This document shows, in pieces, positions 1-51,197 of a DNA stretch of 64,000 nucleotides. Numbering within the stretch: position 1 is the stretch's first letter; every line of letters starts with the position of its first letter. Under the pieces are notes generated by a model that saw only the letters and a program-made list of their open reading frames with translations, ran no database searches and was not told where the DNA came from. Origin of the DNA: Escherichia phage vB_EcoM-G3G7. The stretch is taken from the sequence record MZ234040.1; one strand, written 5' to 3'. The position numbers were made by a program, and so were the translations under genes.

Positions 1-176
1 TTGAAGTTATGGTCTGCTCCAAGCGTGTGAATAATTTCTCGTGAGCGACCTGCAAATTGACTCATCCAGCAAGGAACACCCAATCTTAATTGACCAGCCG
101 CTTGACTCATCCAGCGCTGTCCTGTTTCATTTGCGGCTGAACTTCCAATCCAACCAGGAACACCAACTACTGCCAT
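1..176 (-). CDS. 38: tail-fiber adhesin gp38, N-terminal part (gene continues beyond window start)
   Basis: Minus-strand ATG at 176-174 preceded by GGAG; translation MAVVGVPGWIGSSAANETGQRWMSQAAGQLRLGVPCW... resembles the N-terminus of T2/T6-type gp38 adhesins; lies directly downstream of the gene 37 stop. Confidence 0.75.
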   Translation of the reverse strand, partial: MAVVGVPGWIGSSAANETGQRWMSQAAGQLRLGVPCWMSQFAGRSREIIHTLGADHNF

Positions 177-212
177 AATTTATACTCCAAAGGGGGCATT
201 TCCCCCTTGTTG

Positions 213-3200
213 TTAGAATTTAAAATATTTACTAATTTTGCGAGCAATTTTAGTAAAGAAAGGAGTTTTCAATTCTTTAATTTCTTCACTCATTTCCTGA
301 ATAGCCTTAATTAAAAGAGCATTCACAGCAGAGTTAGAAATTGTCAGAACATCAGATCCATCAACTTCAACTTTAGATACAGCTTCCGGTAATTCCTTTT
401 CAAGGTCCTGAGCAATAATACCAACTTCACGTTTAATAACACTACGGTCTTTAATAGACTTAACTTTATCGTAAATATAAACTTTCAGTCGACATACTTT
501 TTCAAGTGCTCCGTTTTCTAGCTCTTTTTTATTAATCTTAAGACGACCATCGGAACGAATATACACATCGTTAAAGTTACCATTACCAGGAGAATAGAAA
601 GTACCGTCGTAATGAAATTCAAATACCGCGTTAGGGTGTCCAGCCGCTGGTGATGCCTCCGCAGATCCAACACGAATAATTGCTTGCCCCCAATTGTTAG
701 GGACACGACGAATACCAAGATCGACGGCAGTTACAAACCCTTGATTGGTGATTACACTTCTTCCTTTGAGAATCGGATAATAACAATCCTGTGAAACATA
801 ACCATGATCGACGAATATTGGTGCTTCTACTCGCCATTGGTTGCCCCAATCACCCGGTTGTCTAGCAATCCATCCAGAACCGTTAATGTGTACACGATCG
901 CGGTTAACGTTAACCATTGCGATATTTTGTGGATTTAGCGAAATCTCACCATTGTTTGTGATATGTACTGCCGCCTGAGTAGCATAGCTATAAAATGCTA
1001 GCGAATTATCAGCACCACCCTTACCAATATACCAGTTACCACTCCCGTCTACGTCACCACGAATATGCAAAGCATTACCAGCAGTTGTTGATAATACAAT
1101 AGAATCACCCGGACGTTTAATAATCAATCTACCTTCGGATTCAATTTCACCAAAAAATTTAGTCTTAATTGCACCAGTCGCTAAAGTACGTTCAGTGGAA
1201 AAATGAACGCCTTTGCTGTCTTCTAACTGAATAATGTTATCGCGCGCATTATTACTATCACCCCAATGATTAAACCGGAAATAATCACGTGATTGCTTAC
1301 CACCCGCTTCAAACGTCAGCGTACCTTTACTTAAATTAACATCACCGCTAAAGGTAGCAGCAAGAGAATCACGTTCTAATTTTAAAACGTTAGCACCACT
1401 AGTACCACCTAAAGTAACATCACCAGTTCTCAATTCATAACGGAAAGGTCTATTTGTATTATAGTTTCCATTTTGATCATCTTCGTTGGTGGAAAGAATA
1501 TAAAGATTCTCTCCATAAGTACGGAAAATTGTACCAAAATTTCCGGCATACATACGGAATGCATTAGATGAGCGAAATTTAACTTCTGTTTTAAAAGTGG
1601 TAGTGTTATTAAGGTTAACAGTAGAGTTAAAATTGGTAGGAGCACCGAAGTTAACTGCGCCATTAAAATCTTGTTGAGCTGTCCATGTGTGGCGACCATC
1701 TTCAAGAACAACACGGCGGACTGTGCAAGTTCTATTTCCAGAATTACCGAACACACGAACGACAAAATAACGGTAGTTTGTCTGGGATACAGTACCGCGC
1801 CAAACCTGAACAGTACGCCCTGTGCTAGTGTGTTCGCTAGGACCAACGGAAAACATAACCAGGTTTCCGTCAATCGTCCCCCAATCCATATTTGCTGGCA
1901 TATTCTTTATTTTGTTCAAAGGAACACTAAACATACTACCAGGGACAAAATCAAAGGTTTGCCAATCTAGCTCCGCTAATTGAGTTTTAATACCACCCAT
2001 ACCCAAAGTAATTGGCAAAGAGTAAGATGTATATACTTCGTTCCATGTACCCCACGCGCCACCGGTATATGCACGCTCAAAAATACGATCGCGAGTAGTT
2101 GCACCCGTTCCGGCAGTAGTAAATTTTTGGAAAATAGCACCGCCAGAAGCACGCTGTTTAACTTCCAGCAAACCAACAATAACAGTCGGCAAACCTTCAC
2201 CGGTAGGACAGTTAATAACGGCATCAGTGCCTAAAATATTATATAACCCAGGAGTTTTAAAATCATTCAGATCTCCATCATAGAAAGTCGCTGGTGTGAC
2301 ATTACCGACTTGTTGCCACGGTCCCCATTTAGGCGCGGAAGCATCCCACGCGGCAGCAAGACAACGAGTATATACAACACCAAATCTGGTTGTATATCTT
2401 TGTGTACGAGAATAGTTTCCACCTTCATATACTTCCAAAAGACCTTGAGCTGACGACCCCTTTTCTGGGAAATTTCTGTCAAAGGTAGCAATGGAATTTG
2501 AACTATTTCGCCACAAACCAAAGTGTTCAGCGCCTCCTAGATCATTAAGATCAATTGTTGTTGACAGTGGACGAGTACCGGATTGAATATTCTGGGAAAT
2601 TTCTGTCAAAGGTAGCAATGGAATTTGAACTATTTCGCCACAAACCAAAGTGTTCAGCGCCTCCTAGATCATTAAGATCAATTGTTGTTGACAGTGGACG
2701 AGTACCGGATTGAATATTTCGCCACACACTCCACGGACCATTTACTCCGTTCCATGTAGCAGTCAAGGAACGAATATAAACATTTCCGTATCTAGTTGTA
2801 TATCTCTGAGTACCAGCAAATTGACCGGCCACAAATACTTCTAGCACACCTACAGCATTTTCTTCTGGAAATTTATTTGCTGGTTGAGCGTTGGTTGAAG
2901 TTGCTTTCGACCAAACTCCAAGATATTCTTCAACAGGCCCATACGTATCTAAATTAGCATCAGTAGGTAATTCGCCATTATTTTTTATAAATGTTGTGCT
3001 ATTGACATTTATGTCAGATGGAGTTAGCGTGATATCTTTTGACCCATCAAAGGATATACCATTAATTTTTCGTGCTGTTTTTAATTTCGTTGCAGTTGCA
3101 GCGTTACCTGTTAAATTTCCAATTATATTTCCATTAACAGTTAAAGAACCATCAATTGTTCCTCCATATTTTAAACCTAATTCTATAACACTACCTGAGT

Positions 3201-3327
3201 CATCTTTTGTGAAAATTGTTTTATCTTTTAAGTTTATAGCCAATTCACCTTCGGCTAATACTGAAGCTGCAGGACGTTGACCTGCAATTTTGCTTCTTTT
3301 AAATTGTATTTGTTTTAAAGTAGCCAT
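213..3327 (-). CDS. 37: long tail fiber distal subunit gp37; reading frame interrupted by a 127-bp tandem duplication (ORF pieces 2551..3327 and 213..2648)
   Basis: Two adjacent minus-strand ORFs (258 aa and 811 aa) in different frames, both containing [43 protein letters not shown]; removing one 127-bp copy gives one 995-codon ORF; position between gene 36 and gene 38. Confidence 0.85.
2465..2718. repeat. perfect direct tandem duplication, 2 x 127 bp (2465-2591, 2592-2718)
   Basis: Base-by-base comparison of the two copies shows identity over 127 bp, with 2 bp of junction microhomology. Confidence 0.95.
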
Positions 3328-3335
3328 AAGTCCTC

Positions 3336-3986
3336 TTAATAATAGCCGAAATCTTGAACAGAATCTTTAATTACGATTTGGTCAAATCGTGGAACGTGTG
3401 AAGGTTGAGATGCAGGATTCTGTGAAAAAAGGTTTGGCGCAGTTAAATTTCCTGTCATAGTGTCTCCAGAGCGTAATACCCTAGAGTTTGCATTTGCTGT
3501 AACAGTATTTATTGCTCCATCAACATAATCTTTGCGAGTAACATCAGATGCTGCGGAAGGAGTAGATGTAACAGTTACCGATGGAGCCGTTACAGCCCTG
3601 GTAAATGTTGTCAAACCTTCTGGCGTAATAGTAATTTGTCCAGTAGTGATTTCACTACCTGCTGGTCTAAAACTAATACCGCCAGAAGAGCCACCAACTA
3701 CAAGAGTATTACCAGTGCCGCCACCAGAACGAATTCGGATAGGGGTTTCATTATTACTTAATTGAAGATAACTATTTACCCCGTAATTAATAGTAATTGG
3801 ACCGGCGTAAGTACCACCATTAGCTTTAGAAACGAAATCGTTATCAGCTGCCTGCGGTTTATTATATTCTGAATATATTTTAAATGATTTGTAGAGTACA
3901 TCGTCACCGGCTGAATTCAATGGAAAATTTCCTTGATGCCAAATGACAGATCCACCCACAGTTGAACCTACTTTTAAATCAGCCAT
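3336..3986 (-). CDS. 36: long tail fiber distal connector gp36
   Basis: 216-aa ORF in conserved position between genes 35 and 37; T4 gp36-like size. Confidence 0.85.
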
Positions 3987-4009
3987 TATATGCCCCTTTA
4001 TTTTAATAT

Positions 4010-4017
4010 TATTTATA
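4010..4017 (-). promoter_or_regulatory. T4-type late promoter (TATAAATA) for gene 36
   Basis: TATAAATA on minus strand about 24 nt upstream of the gene 36 ATG. Confidence 0.6.
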
Positions 4018-4024
4018 AAGAAAA

Positions 4025-4044
4025 AGGGAACCCGAAGGCTCCCT
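4025..4044 (-). terminator. hairpin with UUCG loop followed by U-run between genes 35 and 36
   Basis: Minus-strand AGGGAGCC-UUCG-GGUUCCCU (one mismatch) followed by TTTTTCTTT. Confidence 0.45.
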
Positions 4045-4048
4045 CAGT

Positions 4049-5164
4049 TTAAACTTCTCTAAATTCCTGTCCAAACACTTTGCCAGTTTTAGAAGAGGCT
4101 TGTGTAGGAAGTACCATTATATCTGGAGGTGAAGCCGATTCACAGACATAATTAACGCGAATACCGTTGACGCCAAATTCGGCAGGTTTTGAAATGCCGC
4201 CATTTCTTGATACTTCAGAAAAACTTAAATTTCTCATGCCGCCTTGACCTGCTTGAGCAGTTCTTTGTGCATATATCGTAAATCCTACGGCGTTTTCTGG
4301 AACAACTACATAGTCTTCTTTTAATTCCCAAGACCCAGCTTGCCCAGTAAACTCAGCTTGGGTCGAGGAAATATATCCATTTGATGCATCATAAAAACGA
4401 ATGGATATGTTTGTAGTTCCAAGATCAAGTAAATCAGCATCAGCATATAACTGTGCTTTAAGATAAAGAACATCACCAGGAATTAAATTATAGTCAGAAA
4501 GTTTACTTATAGCAGCTGAAGTTGGCAATCGCGCAATTTCGTTATTAGTTCCACCAACTGCTGACATGAATTGCTCGACACTTTCATAAGTTCTTTTTGG
4601 AAATCCTGTCGCTCCGACGTCTTCTAAACTATCAAATACAACATCTAAAATAGTTTGATAATCATCTGTGCTTTTTCTATTACTTAGTTTAACATGCTCT
4701 AATGCAATAGCTCTTTTAGAAGAAGTATAAAAAGCAGCATATGATACGTCAAATCTTGACAATACTGAATCTGATGGAAAAACTGAAGTTCCTGCTCCCC
4801 TTAACCAAGATACCACTTCAGGAGGAAAATTAACCTTTCCGCTAGTTAATATAGCAACAAGTCTATTGTTTGACAAAGAATTCATGAAACTAACAAAAGC
4901 AGCTGATGTAGTATTATTTGAAGTAGAAAAAGCATATGACTTACTATCAACTAATGCTCCTGTAGAAGGGTCAAAAACTCTTAAATGAAGACCTGCACTA
5001 AATGTTTGATTTCCAACGGGATTATCCTGAAATTTAACATATGGCCCCGCAGTAGAAAGCGGGCAAGAACCCGCTATGCTTATTTTATATCTTACTGAAT
5101 TGCTTTCCGATAAAAATGGCGTTTGGACATATCCTTGTCCAAACTCTGCCATAAATTTTTCCAT
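4049..5164 (-). CDS. 35: long tail fiber hinge connector gp35
   Basis: 371-aa ORF, conserved position between genes 34 and 36; T4 gp35 is about 372 aa. Confidence 0.85.
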   Translation of the reverse strand: MEKFMAEFGQGYVQTPFLSESNSVRYKISIAGSCPLSTAGPYVKFQDNPVGNQTFSAGLHLRVFDPSTGALVDSKSYAFSTSNNTTSAAFVSFMNSLSNNRLVAILTSGKVNFPPEVVSWLRGAGTSVFPSDSVLSRFDVSYAAFYTSSKRAIALEHVKLSNRKSTDDYQTILDVVFDSLEDVGATGFPKRTYESVEQFMSAVGGTNNEIARLPTSAAISKLSDYNLIPGDVLYLKAQLYADADLLDLGTTNISIRFYDASNGYISSTQAEFTGQAGSWELKEDYVVVPENAVGFTIYAQRTAQAGQGGMRNLSFSEVSRNGGISKPAEFGVNGIRVNYVCESASPPDIMVLPTQASSKTGKVFGQEFREV

Positions 5165-5172
5165 AATACCTC

Positions 5173-8100
5173 TTATTCAATCCACTCAAATTTAACAGTT
5201 TTATTCACTGGGTCAGGAATAATGCGAACATTACCAATTCGCAAGAAATCGCGAATAGTAAGATTACCTATTATTCCATTATCAGATGGGATCGCTCCTA
5301 TATCTGAAGGTTGAGGAGGGTTACCTCCGTCAAATACCTGAACAAAACTTGACCAAGAGTTTTTGGTTTTCTGCCATGTACGTGTCCAGCGAGTGGTACG
5401 TGCTTCTGGGGTCGTTGGATAAGTAATCCAATCTTGGTAAAGTGAATCAAGTGTGTTACCAAACTGAGTCAATGTACCAGGAGATTTAACTTCTTCACCA
5501 CGTTCTAAGTATGGAAGTCCAGTCACTTCATTAGTTTTTTCAACCATTTTAAAATAACCCGGGAACTGGTTATAAGTGGCTGAATCATTAATATCGATTG
5601 ACCAGAATCCTACTGTATCAGATGTTGGCGCACGGGTATATAAATCAGAGGTTTTAGTACCCTGAGAACGAATTCTCGAGTTAACAGTCAAACCACCCGA
5701 ACTTATAGTAGCACCTTTTGCAATGATTAAGCTTTCACCAATCGTTACTTGGCCAGATGCATTATTAATAGCTAAAGGACGCAATCCATTAAATCCGCCA
5801 GTTTGATCACCCGATGCAGTAAGCATAAAATTCGTTACTGACCCATCATTGCGAACAATGAAACCATAATTTCCGTTAATAGCACGGAAAGCATTTGCGC
5901 TTCGAGAAATAATTTCACCAGTTGCAGTGACTGAATTACCAAATGTTGCTACACCATTTGCATTCAATGTTCCTGAAGCATTAACATTTATCGGTGTTAC
6001 TGTACCGTTGATATTAAATGTTATATTTCCAGCTTTATTACGCTGAGAATAAAAATGACTAGACGTTTCATCACTAACTTCAAATACGGTAGAACGTGTT
6101 GTGTCTGATTCCCCACTAAATTGATTTCCCCACACTCTGACTGTCATCGTTTGAGCCGGGTTTGTTCCAGTTTGAGGTCCTTTCTCAAAAATCAGACGAG
6201 TTGCCGTTCCAGTATTAGAAATAGTTAATGTACTATTTGCTGAAACTGATCCACCGAATGTAGCAGTACTAGATGATACAAGAGGGGCACTCAGATTCGT
6301 TTGTTGGGTTAAGGTTAGTGAACCATTAACTGTTTGTGCAATGTCCCTACGAATGAACTGGAGCGAATCTAGACCATCTAATAAATTACTATCTACAGCT
6401 TTTGCTTTTAATGGCAAATAATTTGCTAATACGCGATTTAATTCATATGGTGATACTGCATAACCATTTTTCTCATATGATTCTAATGGCTGTGTTGAAC
6501 CTACCGTATCATTACCAACAAACGTTAATGAACCAGAAGAAGTTTTAACAAACCCTCTTATCAGAGTAGTTGCTGCCCAAGTTGGTTCACTCTGCACAAT
6601 CCATTTTAAATTTTTTGGAGATACAGCAGTATTTGCTGACGTTCCAGTCACAGTTTCAGACTGAGTTGCAACTTTAATAACACCTTCTTGCGATTCGGTA
6701 GATTTAGTACCTAAAAGCTTTTTAGGAGTTATTAAAACATTATCTAATGTTCCTGCAGCAGCTTCAACTTGTGTAGCTACACGAAGTGTACCACGCTGTG
6801 TCTCATTTGCTTCAAGAATATTAAGGGTATAATGGTCCCAGAGAGTTCCTGATTCAACTAATCCAGATAGAGCAACAACAGAAGTACGATCAGTACTATT
6901 AAATCTGGTTTTAATTTTTAATGGTGTAGAGATACGAGTATCGTCGACGCCTGCGTCGAATTCAACTTGCGTAGCAATTTCAGCTATACCACTTAAACTT
7001 TCAGTTGCTCTACGGTCATTTAAAGTTTTAGGAGTGACTGCACGAGTATAGTCAGTTCCTGTATTAACTTCACTTTGCGTAGCAATTTCAATTAAACCAA
7101 TTCTTCCATCAGTTGATGTCTTTTTATGTAACGTTTCTGGCGTTACAACCGCATTTGCCCATCCTTCTTGGCTTTGTCCAGCAATTACTTCACTTTCAAC
7201 TGCTAAAATTACTGCGCCTTGTTGCGTTGGAGTAGCTTTATACTGATCCAAAGCTTTAGGTGAAACAACTAAATTATTAGTGTTTTTATTATAAACATTC
7301 GTACCATTTAATTCACGACTAGAAGCTGGAGTAGCTCCTGCGGTAGATACAAAAGTTACAATACCCGATAATGTTTCAGAACCTTGACGAGCTTGAAGCT
7401 TTTTAGGAGTGATGATTGTAGTATCATCAGTACCTGTATTAGTTTCCTGCTGCGTAGCAATTTCAGCGACACCTCTGCGAGTTTCTGTAGCAGTTCTTTC
7501 ATTCAGCTTTTTAGGAGTGATGATAAGGTCATCTGCAAAAGAGAATGTGGTGTTCTGATTCACTTGAGCAGTAGTTGCTATTCTTGCAATACCTCTGCGA
7601 GTTTCTGTAGCAGTACGATTAGCTAACGTTTCTGGAGTAATTGCCAATTCTTTTTGCGGAGAATTTTCTAAATCAGCATTTGCTTGAGCTTGTGTAGCTA
7701 AAGCAATTACGCCTAATCTTGCTCTAGTAGAATTATTTAAAGAATCGACTCTTTCAACTGTTGGAACGTTTTGCTGTACAACCCAGTATTTTCCATCAGA
7801 ATCTTCTATATAAGCAAGTTGCAAAACTGGTACATAATTAGTTTCACCGTTAAAAACTAATTCTTGAACTGTTACCCATTCAGCTTCAGGCGGATATTCT
7901 GAACGTTTTGGGAATTGCAGCAATTGAACTGAAGAAGCAATTTTATCTTCACCAGCAGCTTTGATTTTAACTGTTTGTCCTTTTCTCATGTAATTCATGG
8001 AAATTTTAACAGTATCACCAACAGAAATATCAGTCGGAAGCTGAAGTTCAATTGTTTGGGTTGTTCCATTATTCGCGCCAAATACCATGACTTCTTCATT

Positions 8101-9042
8101 TGGACGAATATTTGAATTAGTTGTTATAATGCGTAAACGTGCTTTACTATCCCCGTCAAACAATCTCCACAATTTCTCATTATCGTCAAACATCAAGAAA
8201 CCGTCAATCGATGTACGGCCTTCAATGGAATGAGTTCCAACTTCTTGTACTGAAGTCGTTTCATCGTATGTAGTAACAATTGTATGATAAAGTGGATTCA
8301 GTTTATCTAAATCAACGAAATTAATAATATCGCCATGATTAGCAAATCTCGGAAGTTTAACATTAATTGGTGCAGCAGAAGTAAATCTACGTACGATAAA
8401 ATCATTAGATTGTGCTTGATATGCAGTCGATGGAGTAACAATCGCAGCTTCTCTGCTATAATCAGCAATATACATTTGCCACAAACGATTATTAAAAATG
8501 AATACCATCTGTGACTTTGGATGAGTCATTAAAACTGAACGTACCTGTTCACCTCTAAAATTGACAATACTCTGATTTGAAGAATTTATTTTAACCTGAT
8601 TTATGCCAGGTTTTCCACCGATATCTTGAATTATTACGGTTTCTCCATCAAGCGGAGAAGGTGGTAAAGTAAACTCAATGTCATTGCCAACTGATGTATC
8701 TACTGAAATTGCTTCTCCGGATTTTAATTGATATGGTCCAGATGATACGGTTGTATATACGGCATCAGTACGTAATGCTTTCCAACGAATTCTATTAAAA
8801 TTTCCAGCAGGTTTTGGAATATTATCCGTTGCTGCCCAAAAACGATTATTATAAATGATTACAAAATCTTTTAAATATCCACGAGTTGGGTCATATTGCT
8901 GAACTGTGTTTTCTTGAATTAAGTAATCAACGTTAACACCGTCAGTTCCTACGGTACGGTCAGCTAAAGCTACGTTGATTATTTTATCGCCACCTGCGTC
9001 CAGACCATCTTCTGCTCTGAACTTTCTTTTAATCTCGGCCAT
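5173..9042 (-). CDS. 34: long tail fiber proximal subunit gp34
   Basis: 1289-aa ORF (T4 gp34 length) with repeated ...TATETRRG(I/V)A.IAT... motifs; adjacent and divergent to rnh as in T4. Confidence 0.92.
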   Translation of the reverse strand: MAEIKRKFRAEDGLDAGGDKIINVALADRTVGTDGVNVDYLIQENTVQQYDPTRGYLKDFVIIYNNRFWAATDNIPKPAGNFNRIRWKALRTDAVYTTVSSGPYQLKSGEAISVDTSVGNDIEFTLPPSPLDGETVIIQDIGGKPGINQVKINSSNQSIVNFRGEQVRSVLMTHPKSQMVFIFNNRLWQMYIADYSREAAIVTPSTAYQAQSNDFIVRRFTSAAPINVKLPRFANHGDIINFVDLDKLNPLYHTIVTTYDETTSVQEVGTHSIEGRTSIDGFLMFDDNEKLWRLFDGDSKARLRIITTNSNIRPNEEVMVFGANNGTTQTIELQLPTDISVGDTVKISMNYMRKGQTVKIKAAGEDKIASSVQLLQFPKRSEYPPEAEWVTVQELVFNGETNYVPVLQLAYIEDSDGKYWVVQQNVPTVERVDSLNNSTRARLGVIALATQAQANADLENSPQKELAITPETLANRTATETRRGIARIATTAQVNQNTTFSFADDLIITPKKLNERTATETRRGVAEIATQQETNTGTDDTTIITPKKLQARQGSETLSGIVTFVSTAGATPASSRELNGTNVYNKNTNNLVVSPKALDQYKATPTQQGAVILAVESEVIAGQSQEGWANAVVTPETLHKKTSTDGRIGLIEIATQSEVNTGTDYTRAVTPKTLNDRRATESLSGIAEIATQVEFDAGVDDTRISTPLKIKTRFNSTDRTSVVALSGLVESGTLWDHYTLNILEANETQRGTLRVATQVEAAAGTLDNVLITPKKLLGTKSTESQEGVIKVATQSETVTGTSANTAVSPKNLKWIVQSEPTWAATTLIRGFVKTSSGSLTFVGNDTVGSTQPLESYEKNGYAVSPYELNRVLANYLPLKAKAVDSNLLDGLDSLQFIRRDIAQTVNGSLTLTQQTNLSAPLVSSSTATFGGSVSANSTLTISNTGTATRLIFEKGPQTGTNPAQTMTVRVWGNQFSGESDTTRSTVFEVSDETSSHFYSQRNKAGNITFNINGTVTPINVNASGTLNANGVATFGNSVTATGEIISRSANAFRAINGNYGFIVRNDGSVTNFMLTASGDQTGGFNGLRPLAINNASGQVTIGESLIIAKGATISSGGLTVNSRIRSQGTKTSDLYTRAPTSDTVGFWSIDINDSATYNQFPGYFKMVEKTNEVTGLPYLERGEEVKSPGTLTQFGNTLDSLYQDWITYPTTPEARTTRWTRTWQKTKNSWSSFVQVFDGGNPPQPSDIGAIPSDNGIIGNLTIRDFLRIGNVRIIPDPVNKTVKFEWIE

Positions 9043-9076
9043 TCTCCCGGGCTCCTATTGTGTTTTCAATAATAAG

Positions 9077-9084
9077 TATTTATA
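9077..9084 (-). promoter_or_regulatory. T4-type late promoter (TATAAATA) for gene 34
   Basis: TATAAATA on minus strand about 35 nt upstream of the gene 34 ATG. Confidence 0.6.
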
Positions 9085-9087
9085 CCT

Positions 9088-9117
9088 GTTTACTTTAAGA
9101 TTTAGATAGTATATAAT
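9088..9117 (+). promoter_or_regulatory. T4-type early promoter (GTTTAC -35, 18-nt spacer, TATAAT -10) upstream of rnh
   Basis: GTTTAC at 9088-9093 and TATAAT at 9112-9117. Confidence 0.6.
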
Positions 9118-9146
9118 AGAAATCTCACTAATTGAACGAGGTTCAT

Positions 9147-10064
9147 ATGGATTTAGAAATGATGCTGGATGAAGATTACAAAGAAGGAATTTGCTTTATT
9201 GACTTTAGTCAAATTGCTCTTTCAACTGCTCTGGTAAACTTCCCAGATAAAGAAAAAATTAATTTATCAATGGTTCGTCATTTGATATTGAACTCAATTA
9301 AGTTTAATGTCAAAAAAGCAAAAACGCTTGGATACACTAAAATTGTGCTGTGTATTGATAACGCGAAATCTGGATACTGGCGTCGTGATTTTGCTTATTA
9401 TTATAAGAAAAACCGTGGAAAAGCACGAGAAGAATCTACTTGGGACTGGGAAGGTTATTTTGAATCCAGCCATAAAGTTATAGATGAATTGAAAGCTTAT
9501 ATGCCATACATTGTTATGGATATTGATAAGTATGAAGCAGATGACCATATTGCTGTTCTTGTTAAAAAGTTCTCTTTAGAAGGACACAAGATTTTAATCA
9601 TTTCGTCGGATGGTGACTTTACACAGCTTCACAAATATCCAAATGTTAAGCAATGGTCACCGATGCATAAGAAATGGGTTAAAATTAAAAGCGGTTCTGC
9701 TGAAATTGATTGTATGACTAAAATTCTTAAGGGTGACAAAAAGGATAACGTTGCTTCAGTTAAAGTACGTTCTGACTTTTGGTTTACCAGAGTTGAAGGT
9801 GAACGAACTCCTTCAATGAAAACTTCAATCGTTGAAGCTATTGCTAATGACCGTGAGCAAGCTAAGGTGCTTCTCTCAGAATCTGAGTATAATCGTTATA
9901 AAGAAAATTTAGTTCTAATTGATTTTGATTATATTCCTGATAATATTGCTTCAAACATTGTGAATTACTATAATTCATATAAATTACCACCGCGTGGCAA
10001 AATTTATTCATATTTTGTAAAAGCGGGTCTTTCTAAATTAACTAATAGCATTAATGAATTTTGA
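9147..10064 (+). CDS. rnh: RNase H (5'-3' exonuclease / flap endonuclease)
   Basis: Translation MDLEMMLDEDYKEGICFIDFSQIALSTALVNF... matches T4 RNase H (305 aa); GAGG 5 nt upstream of ATG 9147; the ORF-track start at 9132 is a TTG. Confidence 0.93.
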   Translation: MDLEMMLDEDYKEGICFIDFSQIALSTALVNFPDKEKINLSMVRHLILNSIKFNVKKAKTLGYTKIVLCIDNAKSGYWRRDFAYYYKKNRGKAREESTWDWEGYFESSHKVIDELKAYMPYIVMDIDKYEADDHIAVLVKKFSLEGHKILIISSDGDFTQLHKYPNVKQWSPMHKKWVKIKSGSAEIDCMTKILKGDKKDNVASVKVRSDFWFTRVEGERTPSMKTSIVEAIANDREQAKVLLSESEYNRYKENLVLIDFDYIPDNIASNIVNYYNSYKLPPRGKIYSYFVKAGLSKLTNSINEF

Positions 10065-15126: not shown

Positions 15127-15127
<1 letters not shown>

Positions 15128-15675
15128 TGAAACAATACCAATTTTTAATTAAAGATATCCTGGAAAATGGCTACGAAACCGATGACCGAACAGGCACAGG
15201 AACAATTGCTTTGTTCGGTACTAAATTACGCTGGGATTTAACTAAAGGTTTTCCTGCGGTAACAACTAAGAAGCTCGCCTGGAAAGCTTGCATTGCTGAG
15301 CTACTTTGGTTTTTATCAGGAAGCACAAATGTCAATGATTTACGATTAATTCAGCATGATTCGTTAATCCAAGGCAAAACAGTTTGGGATGAAAATTACG
15401 AAAATCAGGCAAAAGATTTAGGATACCATAGTGGTGAACTTGGCCCAATTTATGGAAAACAGTGGCGCGATTTTGGCGGTGTAGACCAAATTATAGAAGT
15501 TATTGATCGTATTAAAAAACTACCAAGTGATAGGCGTCAAATTGTTTCTGCGTGGAATCCAGCTGAACTCAAGCAGATGGCATTACCGCCTTGTCATATG
15601 TTCTATCAGTTTAATGTGCGTAATGGCTATTTGGATTTGCAGTGGTATCAACGATCAGTAGATGTTTTCTTGGGT
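15127..15675 (+). CDS. td: thymidylate synthase, exon 1
   Basis: MKQYQFLIKDILENGYETDDRTGTGTIALFG... matches T4 Td; exon ends ...TTGGGT immediately before the intron sequence TAATTGAGGCCTGAGTATAAGGTG. Confidence 0.93.
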
Positions 15676-16691
15676 TAATTGAGGCCTGAGTATAAGGTGA
15701 CTTATACTTGTAATCTATCTAAACGGGGAACCTCTCTAGTAGACAATCCCGTGCTAAATTGTAGGACTGCCCTTTAATAAATACTTCTATATTTAAAGAG
15801 GTATTTATGAAAAGCGGAATTTATCAGATTAAAAATACTTTAAACAATAAAGTATATGTAGGAAGTGCTAAAGATTTTGAAAAGAGATGGAAGAGGCATT
15901 TTAAAGATTTAGAAAAAGGATGCCATTCTTCTATAAAGCTTCAGAGGTCTTTTAACAAACATGGTAATGTGTTTGAATGTTCTATTTTGGAAGAAATTCC
16001 ATATGAGAAAGATTTGATTATTGAACGAGAAAATTTTTGGATTAAAGAGCTTAATTCTAAAATTAATGGATACAATATTGCTGATGCAACGTTTGGTGAT
16101 ACATGTTCTACGCATCCATTAAAAGAAGAAATTATTAAGAAACGTTCTGAAACTGTTAAAGCTAAGATGCTTAAACTTGGACCTGATGGTCGGAAAGCTC
16201 TTTACAGTAAACCCGGAAGTAAAAACGGGCGTTTGAATCCAGAAACCCATAAGTTTTGTAAGTGCGGTGTTCGCATACAAACTTCTGCTTATACTTGTAG
16301 TAAATGCAGAAATCGTTCAGGTGAAAATAATTCATTCTTTAATCATAAGCATTCAGACATAACTAAATCTAAAATATCAGAAAAGATGAAAGGTAAAAAG
16401 CCTAGTAATATTAAAAAGATTTCATGTGATGGGGTTATTTTTGATTGTGCAGCAGATGCAGCTAGACATTTTAAAATTTCGTCTGGATTAGTTACTTATC
16501 GTGTAAAATCTGATAAATGGAATTGGTTCTACATAAATGCCTAACGACTATCCCTTTGGGGAGTAGGGTCAAGTGACTCGAAACGATAGACAACTTGCTT
16601 TAACAAGTTGGAGATATAGTCTGATCTGCATGGTGACATGCAGCTGGATATAATTCCGGGGTAAGATTAACGACCTTATCTGAACATAATG
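15676..16691 (+). mobile_element. group I self-splicing intron of td (1016 nt) carrying the I-TevI ORF
   Basis: Intron 5' end TAATTGAGGCCTGAG... and 3' end ...CTGAACATAATG (terminal G) match the T4 td intron; joining the exons gives a 286-aa thymidylate synthase. Confidence 0.9.
15807..16544 (+). CDS. I-TevI: GIY-YIG homing endonuclease I-TevI (intron-encoded)
   Basis: 245-aa ORF MKSGIYQIKNTLNNKVYVGSAKDFEKRWKRHF... with GIY-YIG motif and C-terminal DNA-binding region, inside the td intron. Confidence 0.93.
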   Translation: MKSGIYQIKNTLNNKVYVGSAKDFEKRWKRHFKDLEKGCHSSIKLQRSFNKHGNVFECSILEEIPYEKDLIIERENFWIKELNSKINGYNIADATFGDTCSTHPLKEEIIKKRSETVKAKMLKLGPDGRKALYSKPGSKNGRLNPETHKFCKCGVRIQTSAYTCSKCRNRSGENNSFFNHKHSDITKSKISEKMKGKKPSNIKKISCDGVIFDCAADAARHFKISSGLVTYRVKSDKWNWFYINA

Positions 16692-17003
16692 CTTCCATTT
16701 AATATTGCATCATATGCTACGTTAGTTCATATTGTAGCTAAGATGTGTAATCTTATTCCGGGAGATTTGATATTTTCCGGTGGTAATACTCATATCTATA
16801 TGAATCACGTAGAACAATGTAAAGAAATTTTGCGTCGTGAACCTAAAGAGCTTTGTGAACTGGTAATAGGCGGATTGCCTTATAAATTCCGCTATCTTTC
16901 TACTAAAGAACAATTGGAATACATTCTTAAACTCAGGCCTAAAGATTTCGTTCTCAAAGATTATCAGTCCCACGGCGTCTTGAAAGGAAAAATGGCGGTG
17001 TAA
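16692..17003 (+). CDS. td: thymidylate synthase, exon 2
   Basis: LPFNIASYATLVHIVAKMCNLIPGDLIFSGGNTHIYMNHVEQ... continues the Td frame after the intron. Confidence 0.93.
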   Translation, partial: LPFNIASYATLVHIVAKMCNLIPGDLIFSGGNTHIYMNHVEQCKEILRREPKELCELVIGGLPYKFRYLSTKEQLEYILKLRPKDFVLKDYQSHGVLKGKMAV

Positions 17004-22674: not shown

Positions 22675-22704
22675 GTTTACAAGCCCCTCGTGTTGTGTTA
22701 TAGT
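22675..22704 (+). promoter_or_regulatory. T4-type early promoter upstream of alc; part of a 52-bp repeat also present at 38622-38673
   Basis: GTTTAC at 22675-22680, 18-nt spacer, TATAGT at 22699-22704. Confidence 0.6.
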
Positions 22705-22735
22705 AGTCTTACTGACATAACATGAGGACTTTATG

Positions 22736-34505: not shown

Positions 34506-36560
34506 ATGGAACTTATTACAGAATTATTTGACGAAGATACTACTCTTCCGATTACAAACTTAAATCCAAAGAAGAAAATACCGCAAATTTTTTCAGTTCA
34601 TGTTGATGATGCAATTGAACAACCAGGCTTTCGTTTATGTACCTATACATCTGGAGGTGATACTAATCGCGATTTAAAGATGGGCGATAAAATGATGCAT
34701 ATTGTTCCTTTTACATTAACTGCTAAAGGTTCAATTGCTAAATTAAAAGGTCTTGGTCCAAGCCCAATTAATTATATCAATTCAGTTTTTACTGTTGCGA
34801 TGCAAACAATGCGTCAGTATAAAATTGATGCCTGTATGCTTCGTATTCTTAAGTCTAAAACCGCTGGTCAAGCTCGACAAATTCAAGTTATTGCTGATAG
34901 ACTTATCCGTAGTCGTTCAGGTGGCAGATACGTCCTTCTTAAGGAACTCTGGGATTACGATAAAAAGTATGCATATATTCTTATACATCGCAAAAATGTA
35001 TCACTAGAAGACATTCCGGGAGTTCCGGAAATTAGTACTGAGCTCTTTACTAAAGTTGAATCGAAGGTCGGTGATGTTTATATCAATAAAGATACTGGAG
35101 CTCAAGTAACTAAAAATGAGGCAATTGCAGCATCTATTGCGCAAGAAAATGATAAACGTTCTGACCAAGCTGTAATCGTTAAAGTTAAAATTTCCCGTAG
35201 AGCAATTGCGCAAAGTCAATCATTGGAATCTTCTAGATTTGAAACGCCGATGTTTCAAAAATTTGAGGCTTCAGCAGCAGAATTAAATAAACCTGCTGAC
35301 GCTCCTTTAATTTCTGACGCTAATGAATTAACTGTTATTTCTACTTCAGGATTTGCATTAGAGAATGCTCTTAGTAGTGTTACAGCTGGAATGGCATTCA
35401 GAGAAGCTTCTATAATTCCTGAAGATAAAGAATCTGATGTTAATGCAGAAATAAAAAATAAAGCTTTAGAAAGATTACGAAAAGAATCTATTACTTCAAT
35501 AAAAACTTTAGAAACTATTGCTTCTATAGTTGATGATACTTTAGAAAAATATAAAGGTGCTTGGTTAGAAAGAAACATTAACAAGCATTCGCATTTAAAT
35601 CAAGATGCTGCGAATGAGTTAGTACAAAATTCTTGGAATGCAATAAAAACAAAGATTATTCGAAGAGAATTGCGTGGATATGCTCTTACCGCTGGATGGT
35701 CACTACATCCTATAGTCGAAAATAAAGATTCATCTAAATACACACCGGCACAAAAACGCGGAATTCGTGAATACGTAAGTTCAGGATATGTAGACATAAA
35801 TAACGCTCTTTTGGGATTATATAATCCAGATGAGCGTACAAGTATTTTGACAGCATCTGATATAGAAAAAGCTATTGATAATTTAGATTCTGCCTTTAAA
35901 AATGGTGAACGATTACCAAAAGGTATTACTTTGTATCGTTCACAACGAATGTTACCTTCAATATATGAAGCACTGGTAAAAAATCGAGTTTTTTATTTTA
36001 GAAATTTTGTGTCAACATCATTATATCCAAATATTTTTGGTACCTGGATGACTGATTCATCTGTGGGTGTTTTACCAGACGAAAAGCGTTTAAGTGTTTC
36101 TATTGATAAAACTGATGAAGGACTAGTAAATTCTAGCGATAATTTAGTTGGAATTGGATGGGTTATTACTGGGGCTGATAAAGTCAATGTTGTTTTACCA
36201 GGTGGAAGTTTAGCACCTTCAAATGAAATGGAAGTCATTTTGCCACGTGGATTAATGGTCAAAGTTAATAAAATAACCGATGCATCTTACAATGATGGAA
36301 CAGTTAAAACTAACAACAAGCTTATTCAAGCTGAAGTTATGACCACAGAAGAACTCACCGAATCGGTAATTTATGACGGTGACCGTCTAATGGAAACCGG
36401 CGAAGTAGTTACAATGACAGGTGATATTGAAATAGAAGACAGAGTTGATTTTGCATCATTTGTTTCATCAAATGTTAAACAGAAAGTAGAATCATCTCTT
36501 GGAATTATTGCGTCTTGTATAGATATTGCAAACATGCCTTACAAGTTCGTTCAAGGATAA
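34506..36560 (+). CDS. alt: Alt, virion-packaged mono-ADP-ribosyltransferase (modifies host RNA polymerase)
   Basis: About 684-aa ORF MELITELFDEDTTLPITNLNPKKKIPQIFSVHVDDAIEQPGFRLCTYTSGGDTNRDLKMGDK...; ART catalytic signature R (LYRSQ), STS (FVSTSL), E-x-E (EMEVILPRG). Confidence 0.9.
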   Translation: MELITELFDEDTTLPITNLNPKKKIPQIFSVHVDDAIEQPGFRLCTYTSGGDTNRDLKMGDKMMHIVPFTLTAKGSIAKLKGLGPSPINYINSVFTVAMQTMRQYKIDACMLRILKSKTAGQARQIQVIADRLIRSRSGGRYVLLKELWDYDKKYAYILIHRKNVSLEDIPGVPEISTELFTKVESKVGDVYINKDTGAQVTKNEAIAASIAQENDKRSDQAVIVKVKISRRAIAQSQSLESSRFETPMFQKFEASAAELNKPADAPLISDANELTVISTSGFALENALSSVTAGMAFREASIIPEDKESDVNAEIKNKALERLRKESITSIKTLETIASIVDDTLEKYKGAWLERNINKHSHLNQDAANELVQNSWNAIKTKIIRRELRGYALTAGWSLHPIVENKDSSKYTPAQKRGIREYVSSGYVDINNALLGLYNPDERTSILTASDIEKAIDNLDSAFKNGERLPKGITLYRSQRMLPSIYEALVKNRVFYFRNFVSTSLYPNIFGTWMTDSSVGVLPDEKRLSVSIDKTDEGLVNSSDNLVGIGWVITGADKVNVVLPGGSLAPSNEMEVILPRGLMVKVNKITDASYNDGTVKTNNKLIQAEVMTTEELTESVIYDGDRLMETGEVVTMTGDIEIEDRVDFASFVSSNVKQKVESSLGIIASCIDIANMPYKFVQG

Positions 36561-36563
36561 ATC

Positions 36564-38621
36564 ATGGAACTTATTACAGAATTATTTGACGGCGCTTCGG
36601 CGCCGGTTGTTAACTTAAATCCTAAGCATAAAATACCACAAATTTTTGCTATTCAAGCCGGCGAAGAAAGCGTGCTTCCTGGATTTAGATTTTGTACATA
36701 CACCTCTGGTGGTGATACGAATAAAAACGTTAAGCCAGGCGATAAAATGATGCATATCGTAATGATAGGTGTTAATGAGAAACTATCATTAGTTAAGCTT
36801 AAAAACTTGGGTGGAAATCCAATTGGTGTCATTAATGCCGTTTTTGATACTGCTCTTCAAACAATGAAACAGTATAAAATCGACGCATGCCTATTCCGCG
36901 TACTAAAAAGTAAAACAAATGGCGCAGCTCGTCAAATGCAAGTTATTGCTGACCGTTTAGTACGTACTAAAGGAGCAGGTCGATATGTTCTTTTAAAGGA
37001 AATCTGGGACTATGATAAGAAATATGCATATATTATGGTTTACCGTAAAAATGCCAATTTAGAAGACATTCCAGGTGTACCTCCTATTTCAACTGAGTTA
37101 TTCACAAAAGTTGAATCAAAGGTCGGTGATGTTTATGTAGACGTTAAAACAGGAAATGCTGTTCCTAAAGCTGTCGCTGTTGCTGCTTCTATTGCTTTAG
37201 AAAATGATAAGCGCACGGACCAAGCTGTTATTCAGAAAACTAAAATCAGTCGTCGATTAGCAGCACAAGCTCAATATTCTACTGTTGATGCTTCACTTCA
37301 GGGTGATAGCTTTGCTGCCAAGAAATATCAAGAGTTTGAATCTAAAGTTCCGGTATATAAAGCAGAAGGTCCGATGAACTCTGGCGTTATCCAGATTGGT
37401 TCAAACTTCAGCAAAGGAGCTATCGGTGGTATGAGAAGTGCTTCTCGTTTTAAATCTAACGATTATGAACTAGAAAGCTTCCGAAATCATATTGCATTGG
37501 CCCATGCACGTTTACGTGATCCATCTATCAAGTTGCAGAGCGATATAACATATCAAGGTTCTCAAGAATATTTAAAGAATAAAGAATTCTTTGATTATAA
37601 AACTGATAAAATTTTAAGCGATCTTGCTGACATTAATATTTCTAATAGCTTTGATGTTATTAAGAAAATTATCAATGATTTGGTTAAAGGTTCTAAAGCC
37701 ACGCCAGATGAAAAGACAGCTATTATTCAATTTGTAATGAATGGCATTTATAAATTGATTAATGAATCTGCTGCCCAGGCATATGAATACGCAAGCACCG
37801 AAGTAGCTCCAAAAGGACTGACTCAGGCTGAATCTGATGTAATTGAAGATTATTGTGCAGATTCATATGTTGAAATGAACTCGTTCCTTTTGGGTAAACC
37901 AGATTCTACCCGTGAAGAATACATGGAACGAGCTATTAAGCACATCGAGACGTTAGATTCTGCCTTTGCCAAAGGATCAGTTCTTCCTCCAGGAACTACA
38001 CTTTACCGTGGGCAAGAAGTTACCTTTAAAACTTTGCGTCATAACATTGAAAATAAAATGTTCTATTTCAAGAACTTCGTATCCACATCGCTTAAACCAA
38101 ATATCTTCGGTGAGCATGGTAAAAACTATATGGCTCTAGATGATTCTGGCGCAGTATTTTCTGGCGAAGGAGAAGGTTCCGTTGATACAGAAGATTTGAT
38201 GCATATGGGTAGTCATTCTACATATGCTAATGAAGATGCTGAAACTAGCGTGGGTATGGTAATTAAAGGAGCTGAGCGAATCAAAGTTATCGTTCCAGGT
38301 CATTTATCAGGATTTCCATCAGAAGCTGAAGTTATTCTACCACGTGGAATTTTACTGAAGATTAATAAAGTAAGTACGTACTTTATGAAAGAAACTGCTT
38401 ATAACAAGTATCTAATCGAAGGTACAATCGTTCCTCCTTCTGAACAATTAGAAGAATCAGTATATGATGGAGACCATCTAATGGAAACTGGTGAAGTTCG
38501 TCCAATGGCTGGATTTAATCAATTCCTTGTAGAAGAATCAAAAGAAGAGGAAAATGAAGTTTCTCAAATCTTGGCTTCTTTGGTTAACATCAACGGAATG
38601 TCTAAAAAGTTCAAAATGTAG
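36564..38621 (+). CDS. Alt paralog (second Alt-like ADP-ribosyltransferase)
   Basis: 685-aa ORF sharing the N-terminal MELITELFD... and C-terminal catalytic region (LYRGQ, FVSTSL, EAEVILPRG) with Alt, but with a divergent middle region. Confidence 0.85.
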   Translation: MELITELFDGASAPVVNLNPKHKIPQIFAIQAGEESVLPGFRFCTYTSGGDTNKNVKPGDKMMHIVMIGVNEKLSLVKLKNLGGNPIGVINAVFDTALQTMKQYKIDACLFRVLKSKTNGAARQMQVIADRLVRTKGAGRYVLLKEIWDYDKKYAYIMVYRKNANLEDIPGVPPISTELFTKVESKVGDVYVDVKTGNAVPKAVAVAASIALENDKRTDQAVIQKTKISRRLAAQAQYSTVDASLQGDSFAAKKYQEFESKVPVYKAEGPMNSGVIQIGSNFSKGAIGGMRSASRFKSNDYELESFRNHIALAHARLRDPSIKLQSDITYQGSQEYLKNKEFFDYKTDKILSDLADINISNSFDVIKKIINDLVKGSKATPDEKTAIIQFVMNGIYKLINESAAQAYEYASTEVAPKGLTQAESDVIEDYCADSYVEMNSFLLGKPDSTREEYMERAIKHIETLDSAFAKGSVLPPGTTLYRGQEVTFKTLRHNIENKMFYFKNFVSTSLKPNIFGEHGKNYMALDDSGAVFSGEGEGSVDTEDLMHMGSHSTYANEDAETSVGMVIKGAERIKVIVPGHLSGFPSEAEVILPRGILLKINKVSTYFMKETAYNKYLIEGTIVPPSEQLEESVYDGDHLMETGEVRPMAGFNQFLVEESKEEENEVSQILASLVNINGMSKKFKM

Positions 38622-38650
38622 TTTACAAGTCCCTCGTGTTGTGTTATAGT
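38621..38650 (+). promoter_or_regulatory. T4-type early promoter; part of a 52-bp repeat also present at 22675-22726
   Basis: GTTTAC at 38621-38626, 18-nt spacer, TATAGT at 38645-38650. Confidence 0.55.
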
Positions 38651-38681
38651 AGTCTTACTGACATAACATGAGGAACACAAA

Positions 38682-49778: not shown

Positions 49779-51197
49779 ATGACTTTTACAGTTGATATAA
49801 CTCCTAAAACACCGACAGGGGTTATTGATGAAACTAAGCAGTTTACTGCTACACCCAGTGGTGAAACTGGAGGCGGAACTATTACATATGCTTGGACTGT
49901 AGATGATGCTCCACAAGATGGAGCTGAAGCAACTTTTGATTATGTATTAAAAGGACCTGCTGGACAAAAGACTATTAAAGTAGTTGCAACAAATACAGTT
50001 CCAGATACTGATGCTGAAACAGCAGAAGCTACTACAACTATCACAGTTCAAAATAAGACACAAACAACTACTTTAGCTGTAACTCCTGGTAGCCCTGATG
50101 CTGGAGTGATTGGAACTCCAATTGAATTTACCGCTGCCTTAGCTTCACAGCCATCAGGTGCAAACGCTACGTATCAATGGCACGTTGACGGTTCTCCTGT
50201 AGACGAAGCAACTGACGCTACATTCAATTACACTCCTGACACAAGCGGAGTTAAAAAAATCAAGTGTGTAGCTCAAGTAACTGCGGCAGATTATGATGCA
50301 CTAAGCGTTACTTCTAATGAAGTATCATTGACTGTTAATAAAAAGGAGCAGACAACTACTTTGGCAGTAACTCCTGATAGTCCTCCAGCGGGAGTAATCG
50401 GAACCCCAGTTCAATTTACTGCTGCCTTAGCTTCTCAACCTGATGGAGCGTCTGCTACGTATCAGTGGTATGTAGATGATTCACAAGTTGGTGGAGAAAC
50501 TAACTCTACATTTAGCTATACTCCAACTACAAGTGGAGTAAAAAGAATTAAATGCGTAGCCCAAGTAACTGCTGAAAATTACAATGAAAAGGAAGTTACT
50601 TCTAATGAAGTATCATTGACAGTTAATAAGAAGACAATGAATCCACAGGTTACATTGACTCCTCCTTCTATTAATGTTCAGCAAGATGCTTCGGCTACAT
50701 TTACGGCTAATGTTACGGGTGCTCCAGAAGAAGCACAAATTACTTACTCATGGAAGAAAGATTCTTCTCCTGTAGAAGGGTCAACTAACATATATACTGT
50801 CGATACCTCATCTGTTGGAAGTCAAACTATTGAAGTTACTGCTGTCGTTACTGCAACTGATTACGATAGCAAAACTATTACAGCAGAAGGTCAAGTTCAG
50901 GTAACTGATAAAGTTGCTCCAGAACCAGAAGGTGAACTACCTTATGTTCATCCTCTTCCACATCGTACTTCAGCTTATATCTGGTGCGGTTGGTGGGTTA
51001 TGGATGAAATCCAAAAAATGACCGAAGAAGGTAAAGATTGGAAAACTGAAGATCCAGACAGTAAATACTACCTGCATCGTTACACTCTTCAGAAGATGAT
51101 GAAAGACTATCCAGAAGTTGATGTTCAAGAATCACGCAATGGATACATCATTCATAAAACTGCTTTAGAAACTGGTATCATCTATACCTATCCATAA
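49779..51197 (+). CDS. hoc: Hoc, highly immunogenic outer capsid protein, with four Ig-like domains
   Basis: 472-aa ORF MTFTVDITPKTPTGVIDETKQFTATPSGETGGGTITYAW...; C-terminal capsid-binding region ...ELPYVHPLPHRTSAYIWCGWWVMDEI...; internal diverged tandem repeat of one Ig-like unit. Confidence 0.9.
   Translation: MTFTVDITPKTPTGVIDETKQFTATPSGETGGGTITYAWTVDDAPQDGAEATFDYVLKGPAGQKTIKVVATNTVPDTDAETAEATTTITVQNKTQTTTLAVTPGSPDAGVIGTPIEFTAALASQPSGANATYQWHVDGSPVDEATDATFNYTPDTSGVKKIKCVAQVTAADYDALSVTSNEVSLTVNKKEQTTTLAVTPDSPPAGVIGTPVQFTAALASQPDGASATYQWYVDDSQVGGETNSTFSYTPTTSGVKRIKCVAQVTAENYNEKEVTSNEVSLTVNKKTMNPQVTLTPPSINVQQDASATFTANVTGAPEEAQITYSWKKDSSPVEGSTNIYTVDTSSVGSQTIEVTAVVTATDYDSKTITAEGQVQVTDKVAPEPEGELPYVHPLPHRTSAYIWCGWWVMDEIQKMTEEGKDWKTEDPDSKYYLHRYTLQKMMKDYPEVDVQESRNGYIIHKTALETGIIYTYP

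Follow-up and report, generated by a model that had tools for sequence, protein, structure and literature searches.

A perfect 127-bp tandem repeat that splits tail-fibre gene 37 in the record of Escherichia phage G3G7 is very probably an untrimmed assembly overlap

The deposited genome of Escherichia phage vB_EcoM-G3G7 (MZ234040, 168,649 bp; Table 1 of Loose et al. 2021, PMC8614997) carries two perfect, head-to-tail copies of a 127-nt sequence within the gene encoding the distal subunit of its long tail fibre, and the second copy throws the gene out of frame. This raises the question of whether the phage itself carries a broken fibre gene or whether the break arose when its genome was assembled. 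We analysed a stretch of 64,000 nucleotides, corresponding to positions 64001-128000 of the record (hereafter the window), and give all positions in window coordinates unless another record is named (Table 1). The second 127-bp copy is very probably a terminal overlap of the SPAdes assembler that was left untrimmed before the record was rotated, and not phage DNA. The real G3G7 most likely carries the unit once, with gp37 intact at 995 aa.

Table 1. Features of the gene 37 region in the 64,000-nt window, with the evidence for each.
Feature	Position	Strand	Evidence or remark
Gene 37, long tail fibre distal subunit, as written	213..3327	-	ORFs; relatives' annotation; broken by the extra 127 nt
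N-terminal ORF, 258 aa, deposited as QZI83259.1 'tail fiber'	2551..3327	-	ORF; exact protein match
Rest of gene 37 in shifted frame, 749 aa + stop (750 codons)	213..2464	-	ORF
Gene 36, hinge connector / small distal fibre subunit, intact	3336..3986	-	216-aa ORF; relatives' annotation
Gene 35, long tail fibre hinge (by T4 gene order), intact	4049..5164	-	ORF; siblings annotate 'long tail fiber'
Gene 34, proximal long tail fibre subunit (by T4 gene order), intact	5173..9042	-	ORF; siblings annotate 'long tail fiber'
Single-base difference, T here vs C in the relatives checked	2462..2462	-	Comparison with G3G6, G3F8, KEP10, Pinarejo and fPS-90
Copy 1 of the 127-nt unit	2463..2589	no strand	100% identity, period 127; 2465-2591 is an equivalent phase
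Copy 2 of the 127-nt unit	2590..2716	no strand	Bases 2717-2718 (tt) would lengthen the identity by chance if the repeat is an artefact

The repeat itself is beyond doubt as far as the letters of the record go. Positions 2465-2591 and 2592-2718, which the initial annotation had called base-for-base identical, agree at 127 of 127 bases when compared directly, and Tandem Repeats Finder returns a single array spanning 2463-2718 (period 127, 2.0 copies, 100% matches, no indels, score 512). A separate repeat finder returned the same repeat family. Identity at period 127 extends over the 256 nt of that array, i.e., 2x127+2, and the phase of the repeat unit is ambiguous by 2 nt: 2463-2589 followed by 2590-2716 is as valid a division as 2465-2591 followed by 2592-2718. 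The junction between the copies shows a 2-bp identity (TT). Perfect 127-nt tandems are expected by chance about 1e-72 times in 64 kb. Dividing 127 by 3 leaves a remainder of 1, and the repeat is therefore out of frame.

The consequences for the gene can be read from its ORFs. The upstream ORF holds 246 native residues followed by 12 novel ones and a stop, the codon at the junction being GAA, which still encodes E; the rest of the gene runs to position 213 in another frame. Deleting one copy gives a single ORF of 995 aa that has the length and the coordinates of the intact gene in the siblings, e.g., G3F8_132 at 64213..67200. The frameshift in the gene as written and the 995-codon ORF obtained by deleting one copy had both been pointed out in the initial annotation and are borne out here. 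It had also placed a stop soon after the junction, correctly, but its count of 245 codons plus 13 out-of-frame ones gives way to the 246 and 12 above. We considered recoding or a functional split fibre and rejected both: the stop comes 12 codons past the junction, and the downstream piece lacks its own start codon at 2464, with no bypass or recoding signal seen in its sequence.

Once collapsed to one copy, the gene differs from G3G6_132 at one base over the 2988 nt compared and shows 98-99.9% identity to other Tequatrovirus copies (KEP10 gene 37, Pinarejo, JB75, G3F8_132). Pfam places Peptidase_S74 at residues 883-941 and Gp34_trimer at 522-587 of the intact sibling gp37, both above threshold, and finds nothing in the collapsed protein besides the expected fibre and chaperone domains. 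A megablast search with the region matched 693 records of T4-like phages, and those listed annotate a long tail fibre distal subunit and then a hinge connector. The neighbouring ORFs match the tail-connector and long-tail-fibre genes of the siblings in the T4 order 36, 35, 34. The relatives' annotation, this gene order and the Pfam domains identify the interrupted gene as a Tequatrovirus gene 37. Within the window, neither a gathering search of Rfam nor a scan for tRNAs gave a match, and a scan of positions 1-9500 for promoters and terminators found promoters at background level.

We searched for the duplication in 50,697 phage records by megablast, using as queries window positions 2000-3400 and a probe of 96 nt with the copy junction at its middle. 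With the longer query, each of the 40 matches listed aligns in two pieces, its 1401 bases mapping onto 1274 (1401 - 127). With the probe, none of the 15 matches listed contains the junction in one piece; in these records the two halves of the probe fall at the two ends of one single copy, over 129 bases. A single copy is found in the near-identical siblings G3F6, G3F8, G3F9 and G3G6, and CHD16UKE1 and CHD2BS1 have one copy each. The same is true of the bred progeny PM105 and PM107 (present in both lists) and PM108 and PM133 (in the 40-record list), whose backbone was traced to G3G7 and CHD16UKE1 (PMC8614997). As far as the matches listed go, the duplication is confined to MZ234040. Its protein product leads to the same place: the 258-aa ORF equals QZI83259.1 residue for residue and occurs in 1 contig among about 15 billion proteins (NCBI only). 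This junction-derived product is absent from the other indexed assemblies, Logan and ENA included, a search that is uninformative on the G3G7 reads.

The length of the genome carries the same number, the 168,649 bp of G3G7 being the 168,522 bp of G3G6 plus 127. The ten best megablast matches all come from one series of records, MZ2340xx (CHD2BS1, CHD16UKE1, G3F6, G3F8, G3F9, G3G6, PM105, PM107, PM108 and PM133), and adding 64,000 to window coordinates gives those of G3F8 and G3G6 in exact register. The sibling records G3G6 and CHD16UKE1 open on base 1 of CDS 001 (ATGAAAACTG...), and no overlap between start and end was found at the termini of either; the sibling assemblies were therefore taken to be circular and cut open again at a selected gene. 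From its register with G3G6 and its total length, we infer that the G3G7 record was rotated too. T4-type genomes are circularly permuted, and a T4-like headful terminase is annotated in a sibling, so that everything found here (a Tequatrovirus, this terminase, sibling records opened at a chosen gene start) is what a genome that assembles as a circle should show. We also looked for a leftover 127-bp overlap along the whole record of MZ234014 (44,971 bp), from the same study, and found none: leftover overlaps are not systematic in this data set. The results for MZ234014, G3G6 and CHD16UKE1 neither add support for an artefact nor contradict it.

When one copy is removed, the remaining 63,873 bases form an ungapped alignment with G3G6 64001-127873, and its sole mismatch is window position 2462, which is T here and C in G3G6. 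The site is also C in G3F8, KEP10 (Japan), Pinarejo (USA) and Yersinia phage fPS-90, and the 101 bases around it find a perfect match in 0 of 69 public records, so the T is private to MZ234040. It changes Glu247 to Lys (E247K) in the collapsed gp37. Position 2462 lies just outside the repeat and adjoins it directly, and such contact between the repeat and the only difference in 63.9 kb would arise by chance with a probability of about 3e-5 to 1e-4. A real tandem duplication makes one new junction, between the copies, and leaves a change at the outer edge unexplained. A site with two alleles in a de Bruijn graph, in contrast, produces a bubble that closes at the k-mer right after the site, and this explains a change at the outer edge.

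To make this concrete, we built a toy graph, which is not SPAdes, with k = 127 from the collapsed window taken as a circle and with both T and C at position 2462. It branches at two k-mers only, 2335-2461 and 2463-2589, the latter with an in-degree of 2, and its long unitig begins at 2463. When this unitig is closed via the T arm, the resulting contig exceeds the genome by 127 nt, begins and ends with the same 127 nt and has the T just ahead of the terminal k-mer. Rotated untrimmed, the contig equals the 64,000-base window exactly, a match that is in part built into the design. What is not trivial is the phase: the observed repeat allows only three, and the one predicted from the variant site is among them. 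The break thus falls at a graph vertex (k-mer 2463-2589) adjoining a putatively variable site (2462), and the logic of the graph points to a T/C polymorphism in the reads at that site.

These observations suggest the following course of events. The circularly permuted, T4-like genome would give an assembly graph that is a circle, and SPAdes would output the closed path as a linear contig with its first and last k bases alike, k being 127. The read set probably contained both T and C at 2462, owing either to a mixed stock or to cross-talk with sibling libraries, and the closing vertex of the resulting bubble would be the k-mer 2463-2589. The contig would have begun at this k-mer, circled the genome, passed along the T arm and finished where it began, so that 2463-2589 would be the k-mer at the original 3' end of the contig and 2590-2716 the same k-mer at its 5' start. 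The records would then have been rotated so that each opens at the ATG of the same gene. With the terminal k-mer of G3G7 left untrimmed, its two copies would have come to lie head to tail, by chance in gene 37; their internal position would follow because rotation shifts what had been the ends of the contig to the interior of the record. Reads crossing the copy junction should be absent. The least certain step is the exact route by which the contig break landed at 2462, because SPAdes bubble removal often pops a simple SNP bubble.

For reads of at least 250 nt, the default k list of SPAdes includes 127. The G3G7 series was sequenced with MiSeq v3 600-cycle (2x300) reads and assembled with SPAdes 3.13.0/3.14.1, Geneious being used as well; the article leaves the k values unstated, does not describe trimming or rotation and does not mention the duplication in G3G7 (PMC8614997). 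The largest k-mer of SPAdes is 127, and the assembler makes overlapping sequence at contig ends (PMC5481147). '127 bp artificial overlaps' from SPAdes are on record (PMC5923482), and for phage U136B, a circularly permuted coliphage, the SPAdes 3.13 assembly carried terminal repeats of 127 bp, which were cut off prior to reopening the genome (PMC8104045); in both reports the overlaps arose under default settings (PMC5923482, PMC8104045). The G3G7 repeat resembles the overlaps of these reports (PMC5923482, PMC8104045, PMC5481147) in its identical copies, its length of 127, the use of SPAdes 3.13/3.14 and the circular assembly map. It differs from them in its place: such overlaps usually lie at the termini of the record, where they are trimmed or taken as a sign of circularity, whereas the G3G7 copies lie inside a gene and, after rotation before trimming, would mimic a frameshifting tandem duplication. 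It is probable that k = 127 was used for the G3G7 assembly, and that its contig closed on itself and was then rotated untrimmed.

Amber and null mutants of T4 gene 37 give fibreless, non-infectious particles, since adsorption cannot proceed without the distal half-fibre. Among the ancestors, G3G7 formed plaques on the largest share of test strains, 49%, and it was added to the breeding cocktail at 2e7 PFU/mL (PMC8614997). A stock with a consensus genome lacking gp37 would not be expected to plaque. Because G3G7 does plaque and T4 gene 37 nulls are non-infectious, an intact gp37 is required.

The initial annotation had left three origins open, namely an unstable duplication mutant, a mixed population and an assembly artefact. 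The last is favoured by the coincidence of the repeat length with the maximum k of SPAdes, by the rotation, by the single-copy relatives, by the viability of the phage and by the adjoining base 2462. A mixed population may hold in a narrower sense, with T and C at 2462 probably fixing the site of the break.

The alternative that survives best, although very improbable, keeps the duplication as phage DNA: a genuine 127-bp duplication in a minority of a mixed G3G7 stock, complemented in trans by the wild-type and threaded into the consensus. The stocks are plausibly heterogeneous, as the phages came from breeding and mixed cultures (PMC8614997), and T-even phages are known to have tandem duplications (PMC8614997 reference 39, Tetart et al. 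1996). The TT identity at the junction fits a microhomology-mediated duplication and, being also expected of a real one, counts to that extent against an artefact. Yet a minority duplication leaves unexplained a length of exactly 127 bp, the SPAdes maximum k, and the genome's sole difference from the sibling should not lie at the outer edge instead of the inner junction. It would be out of frame, hence of no selective value, as well as recombinationally unstable, and it is found neither in the four sibling assemblies nor in the progeny phages. A duplication in part of the stock would also have to match the k length and the E247K edge by coincidence or through a linked mutational event, and we consider it very improbable. 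The known biology of duplication and recombination in T-even phages, which had been invoked to account for the repeat, is not supported as its explanation.

A different artefact, with about half that probability, would start from at least two contigs sharing a 127-nt k-mer, or from a manual closure in Geneious, joined without removal of the shared k-mer. Its signature would be the same as that of a self-closing contig, Geneious was used in the study (PMC8614997) and adjoining SPAdes contigs share k-length ends (PMC5481147). However, the excess over the sibling is one unit (168,649 vs 168,522), which implies one join only, and a single self-closing contig fits this at least as well.

The least probable alternative, which we regard as extremely unlikely, takes the record at its word. 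The deposited sequence does read this way, and the split gene is annotated accordingly (QZI83259.1), so that the duplication could be real and fixed and gene 37 of G3G7 truly frameshifted, as the title of the initial annotation had it. But loss of gp37 abolishes adsorption, as known from T4 genetics, in conflict with the plaquing and titre of G3G7 given above; the downstream part offers neither a start codon nor a recoding signal; and the k = 127 length and the adjacent SNP also count against it. With a viable phage and single copies in both siblings and progeny, a frameshift in the phage's own gene is not supported.

The untrimmed overlap that we favour can also be set against genuine duplications in tail-fibre genes. 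Tetart et al. reportedly described, in 1996, duplications of small domains in T4 gp37. In Enterococcus phage EfV12-phi1, duplications of 1.8 kb in the tail fibre are in frame and are accompanied by extra read depth, PCR ladders and long reads (PMC6365445). The G3G7 repeat shares with both the head-to-tail arrangement in a myovirus long-tail-fibre gene, as well as the setting of a host-range breeding study. Genuine duplications are in frame and alter host range, whereas that of G3G7 is out of frame, with its stop 12 codons past the junction, and would be lethal if real. It does not recur either, being present in a single record while the progeny have one copy; it is missing in the siblings, and its length is that of an assembler k. 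The gene 37 copies of siblings and relatives (G3G6_132, G3F8_132, KEP10, Pinarejo, JB75) have the same domain content as that of G3G7 once collapsed, but lack its private E247K and its extra 127 nt. In all likelihood, the G3G7 repeat is a well-known SPAdes artefact, the terminal overlap, found in an unusual location, and not a genuine tail-fibre duplication. The protein does contain an old internal repeat, FPE...QRYTTR, at aa 153/174 and 244/267. Unequal crossing-over between its copies was rejected as a source, the spacing being 91-93 aa (about 276 nt) and not 127 nt.

Read as an untrimmed overlap, the duplication is without biological significance and is a database error. MZ234040, the record of an ancestor in a phage-therapy breeding study, would contain an artefactual 127-bp insertion that inflates its genome length by 127 bp and splits gp37 into a 258-aa fragment (QZI83259.1) and a remainder that cannot be annotated. 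Comparisons of tail fibres or host range, CDS-by-CDS analyses of mosaicism and the training of host-prediction models would be misled by this record, which, given our high confidence in the artefact, needs correction. The E247K change is the only candidate for a real difference between G3G7 and its siblings in the 64-kb window, and no function should be read into it yet. Similar errors can be screened for as perfect internal tandem repeats with a period equal to an assembler k (127, 99, 77, 55 and so on). Among the periods tested in the window (21, 33, 55, 77, 99 and 127), the 127-bp repeat is the sole perfect tandem.

Across the entire window, the sole difference between G3G7 and its sibling phage G3G6 is the base at 2462, which in a sequence comparison is T in the G3G7 record and C in G3G6, G3F8 (another sibling), KEP10, Pinarejo and fPS-90. 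This private base changes Glu247 to Lys in gp37, the distal subunit of the long tail fibre, and it may be either a real G3G7 variant or an assembly error linked to the contig end.

The gp37 protein also carries an old repeat of its own, whose two copies lie on either side of the 127-nt tandem duplication that we read as an untrimmed SPAdes overlap. We rejected this repeat as the source of the duplication: its copies are spaced 91-93 aa apart, a distance at odds with a unit of 127 nt, and the two are thus unrelated. The other repeated or split features of the window are listed with it below.

Repeated and split features of the window
Feature	Position	Strand	Details
gp37 protein-level repeat	residues 153-200 and 244-295	-	gene 213-3327; motif FPE..G.LEV....…TQRYTTR.G.VY.R
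68-nt motif, four copies	6665-7641	-	within gene 34 (proximal long-tail-fibre gene); 63-72% identity
Thymidylate synthase in two pieces	15127-17003	+	Pfam profile positions 1-175 and 176-266
54-nt intergenic element, two copies	22675-22728 and 38621-38674		upstream of + genes; 98% identical
Neighbouring genes, ~685 aa each	34506-36560 and 36564-38621	+	ADP-ribosyltransferase exoenzyme domain in both
288-nt (96-aa) tandem repeat	50043-50618	+	inside gene 49779-51197; 74% identity

The copies in gene 34 mirror recurring peptide motifs of the fibre shaft (…ATQ…T….ITPKKL…). The gene with the 96-aa repeat encodes 472 aa with PKD and Ig-like domains (Pfam); annotated in the sibling as "capsid and scaffold protein", its product is probably a Hoc-like decoration protein of the capsid, in which Ig-like domains are repeated.

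The thymidylate synthase pieces are separated by a GIY-YIG endonuclease that has I-TevI zinc-finger and DNA-binding domains (Pfam). The layout is that of the classic td group I intron, although an Rfam search at gathering thresholds found no intron family anywhere in the 64,000 nt.

In the neighbouring genes the exoenzyme domain gives Pfam E-values of 6e-35 and 5e-20. The two genes are also 72% identical over 158 nt (34548-34705 and 36603-36760), and look like Alt-like paralogues in tandem. The 54-nt copies (GTTTACAAG.CCCTCGTGTTGTGTTATAGTAGTCTTACTGACATAACATGAGGA), 15.9 kb apart, both contain a GTTTAC...TATAGT pair and a GAGGA immediately upstream of a plus-strand gene, and resemble T4-type early promoters with a common leader; the downstream genes are an alc-like gene and a small gene that follows the second Alt paralogue.
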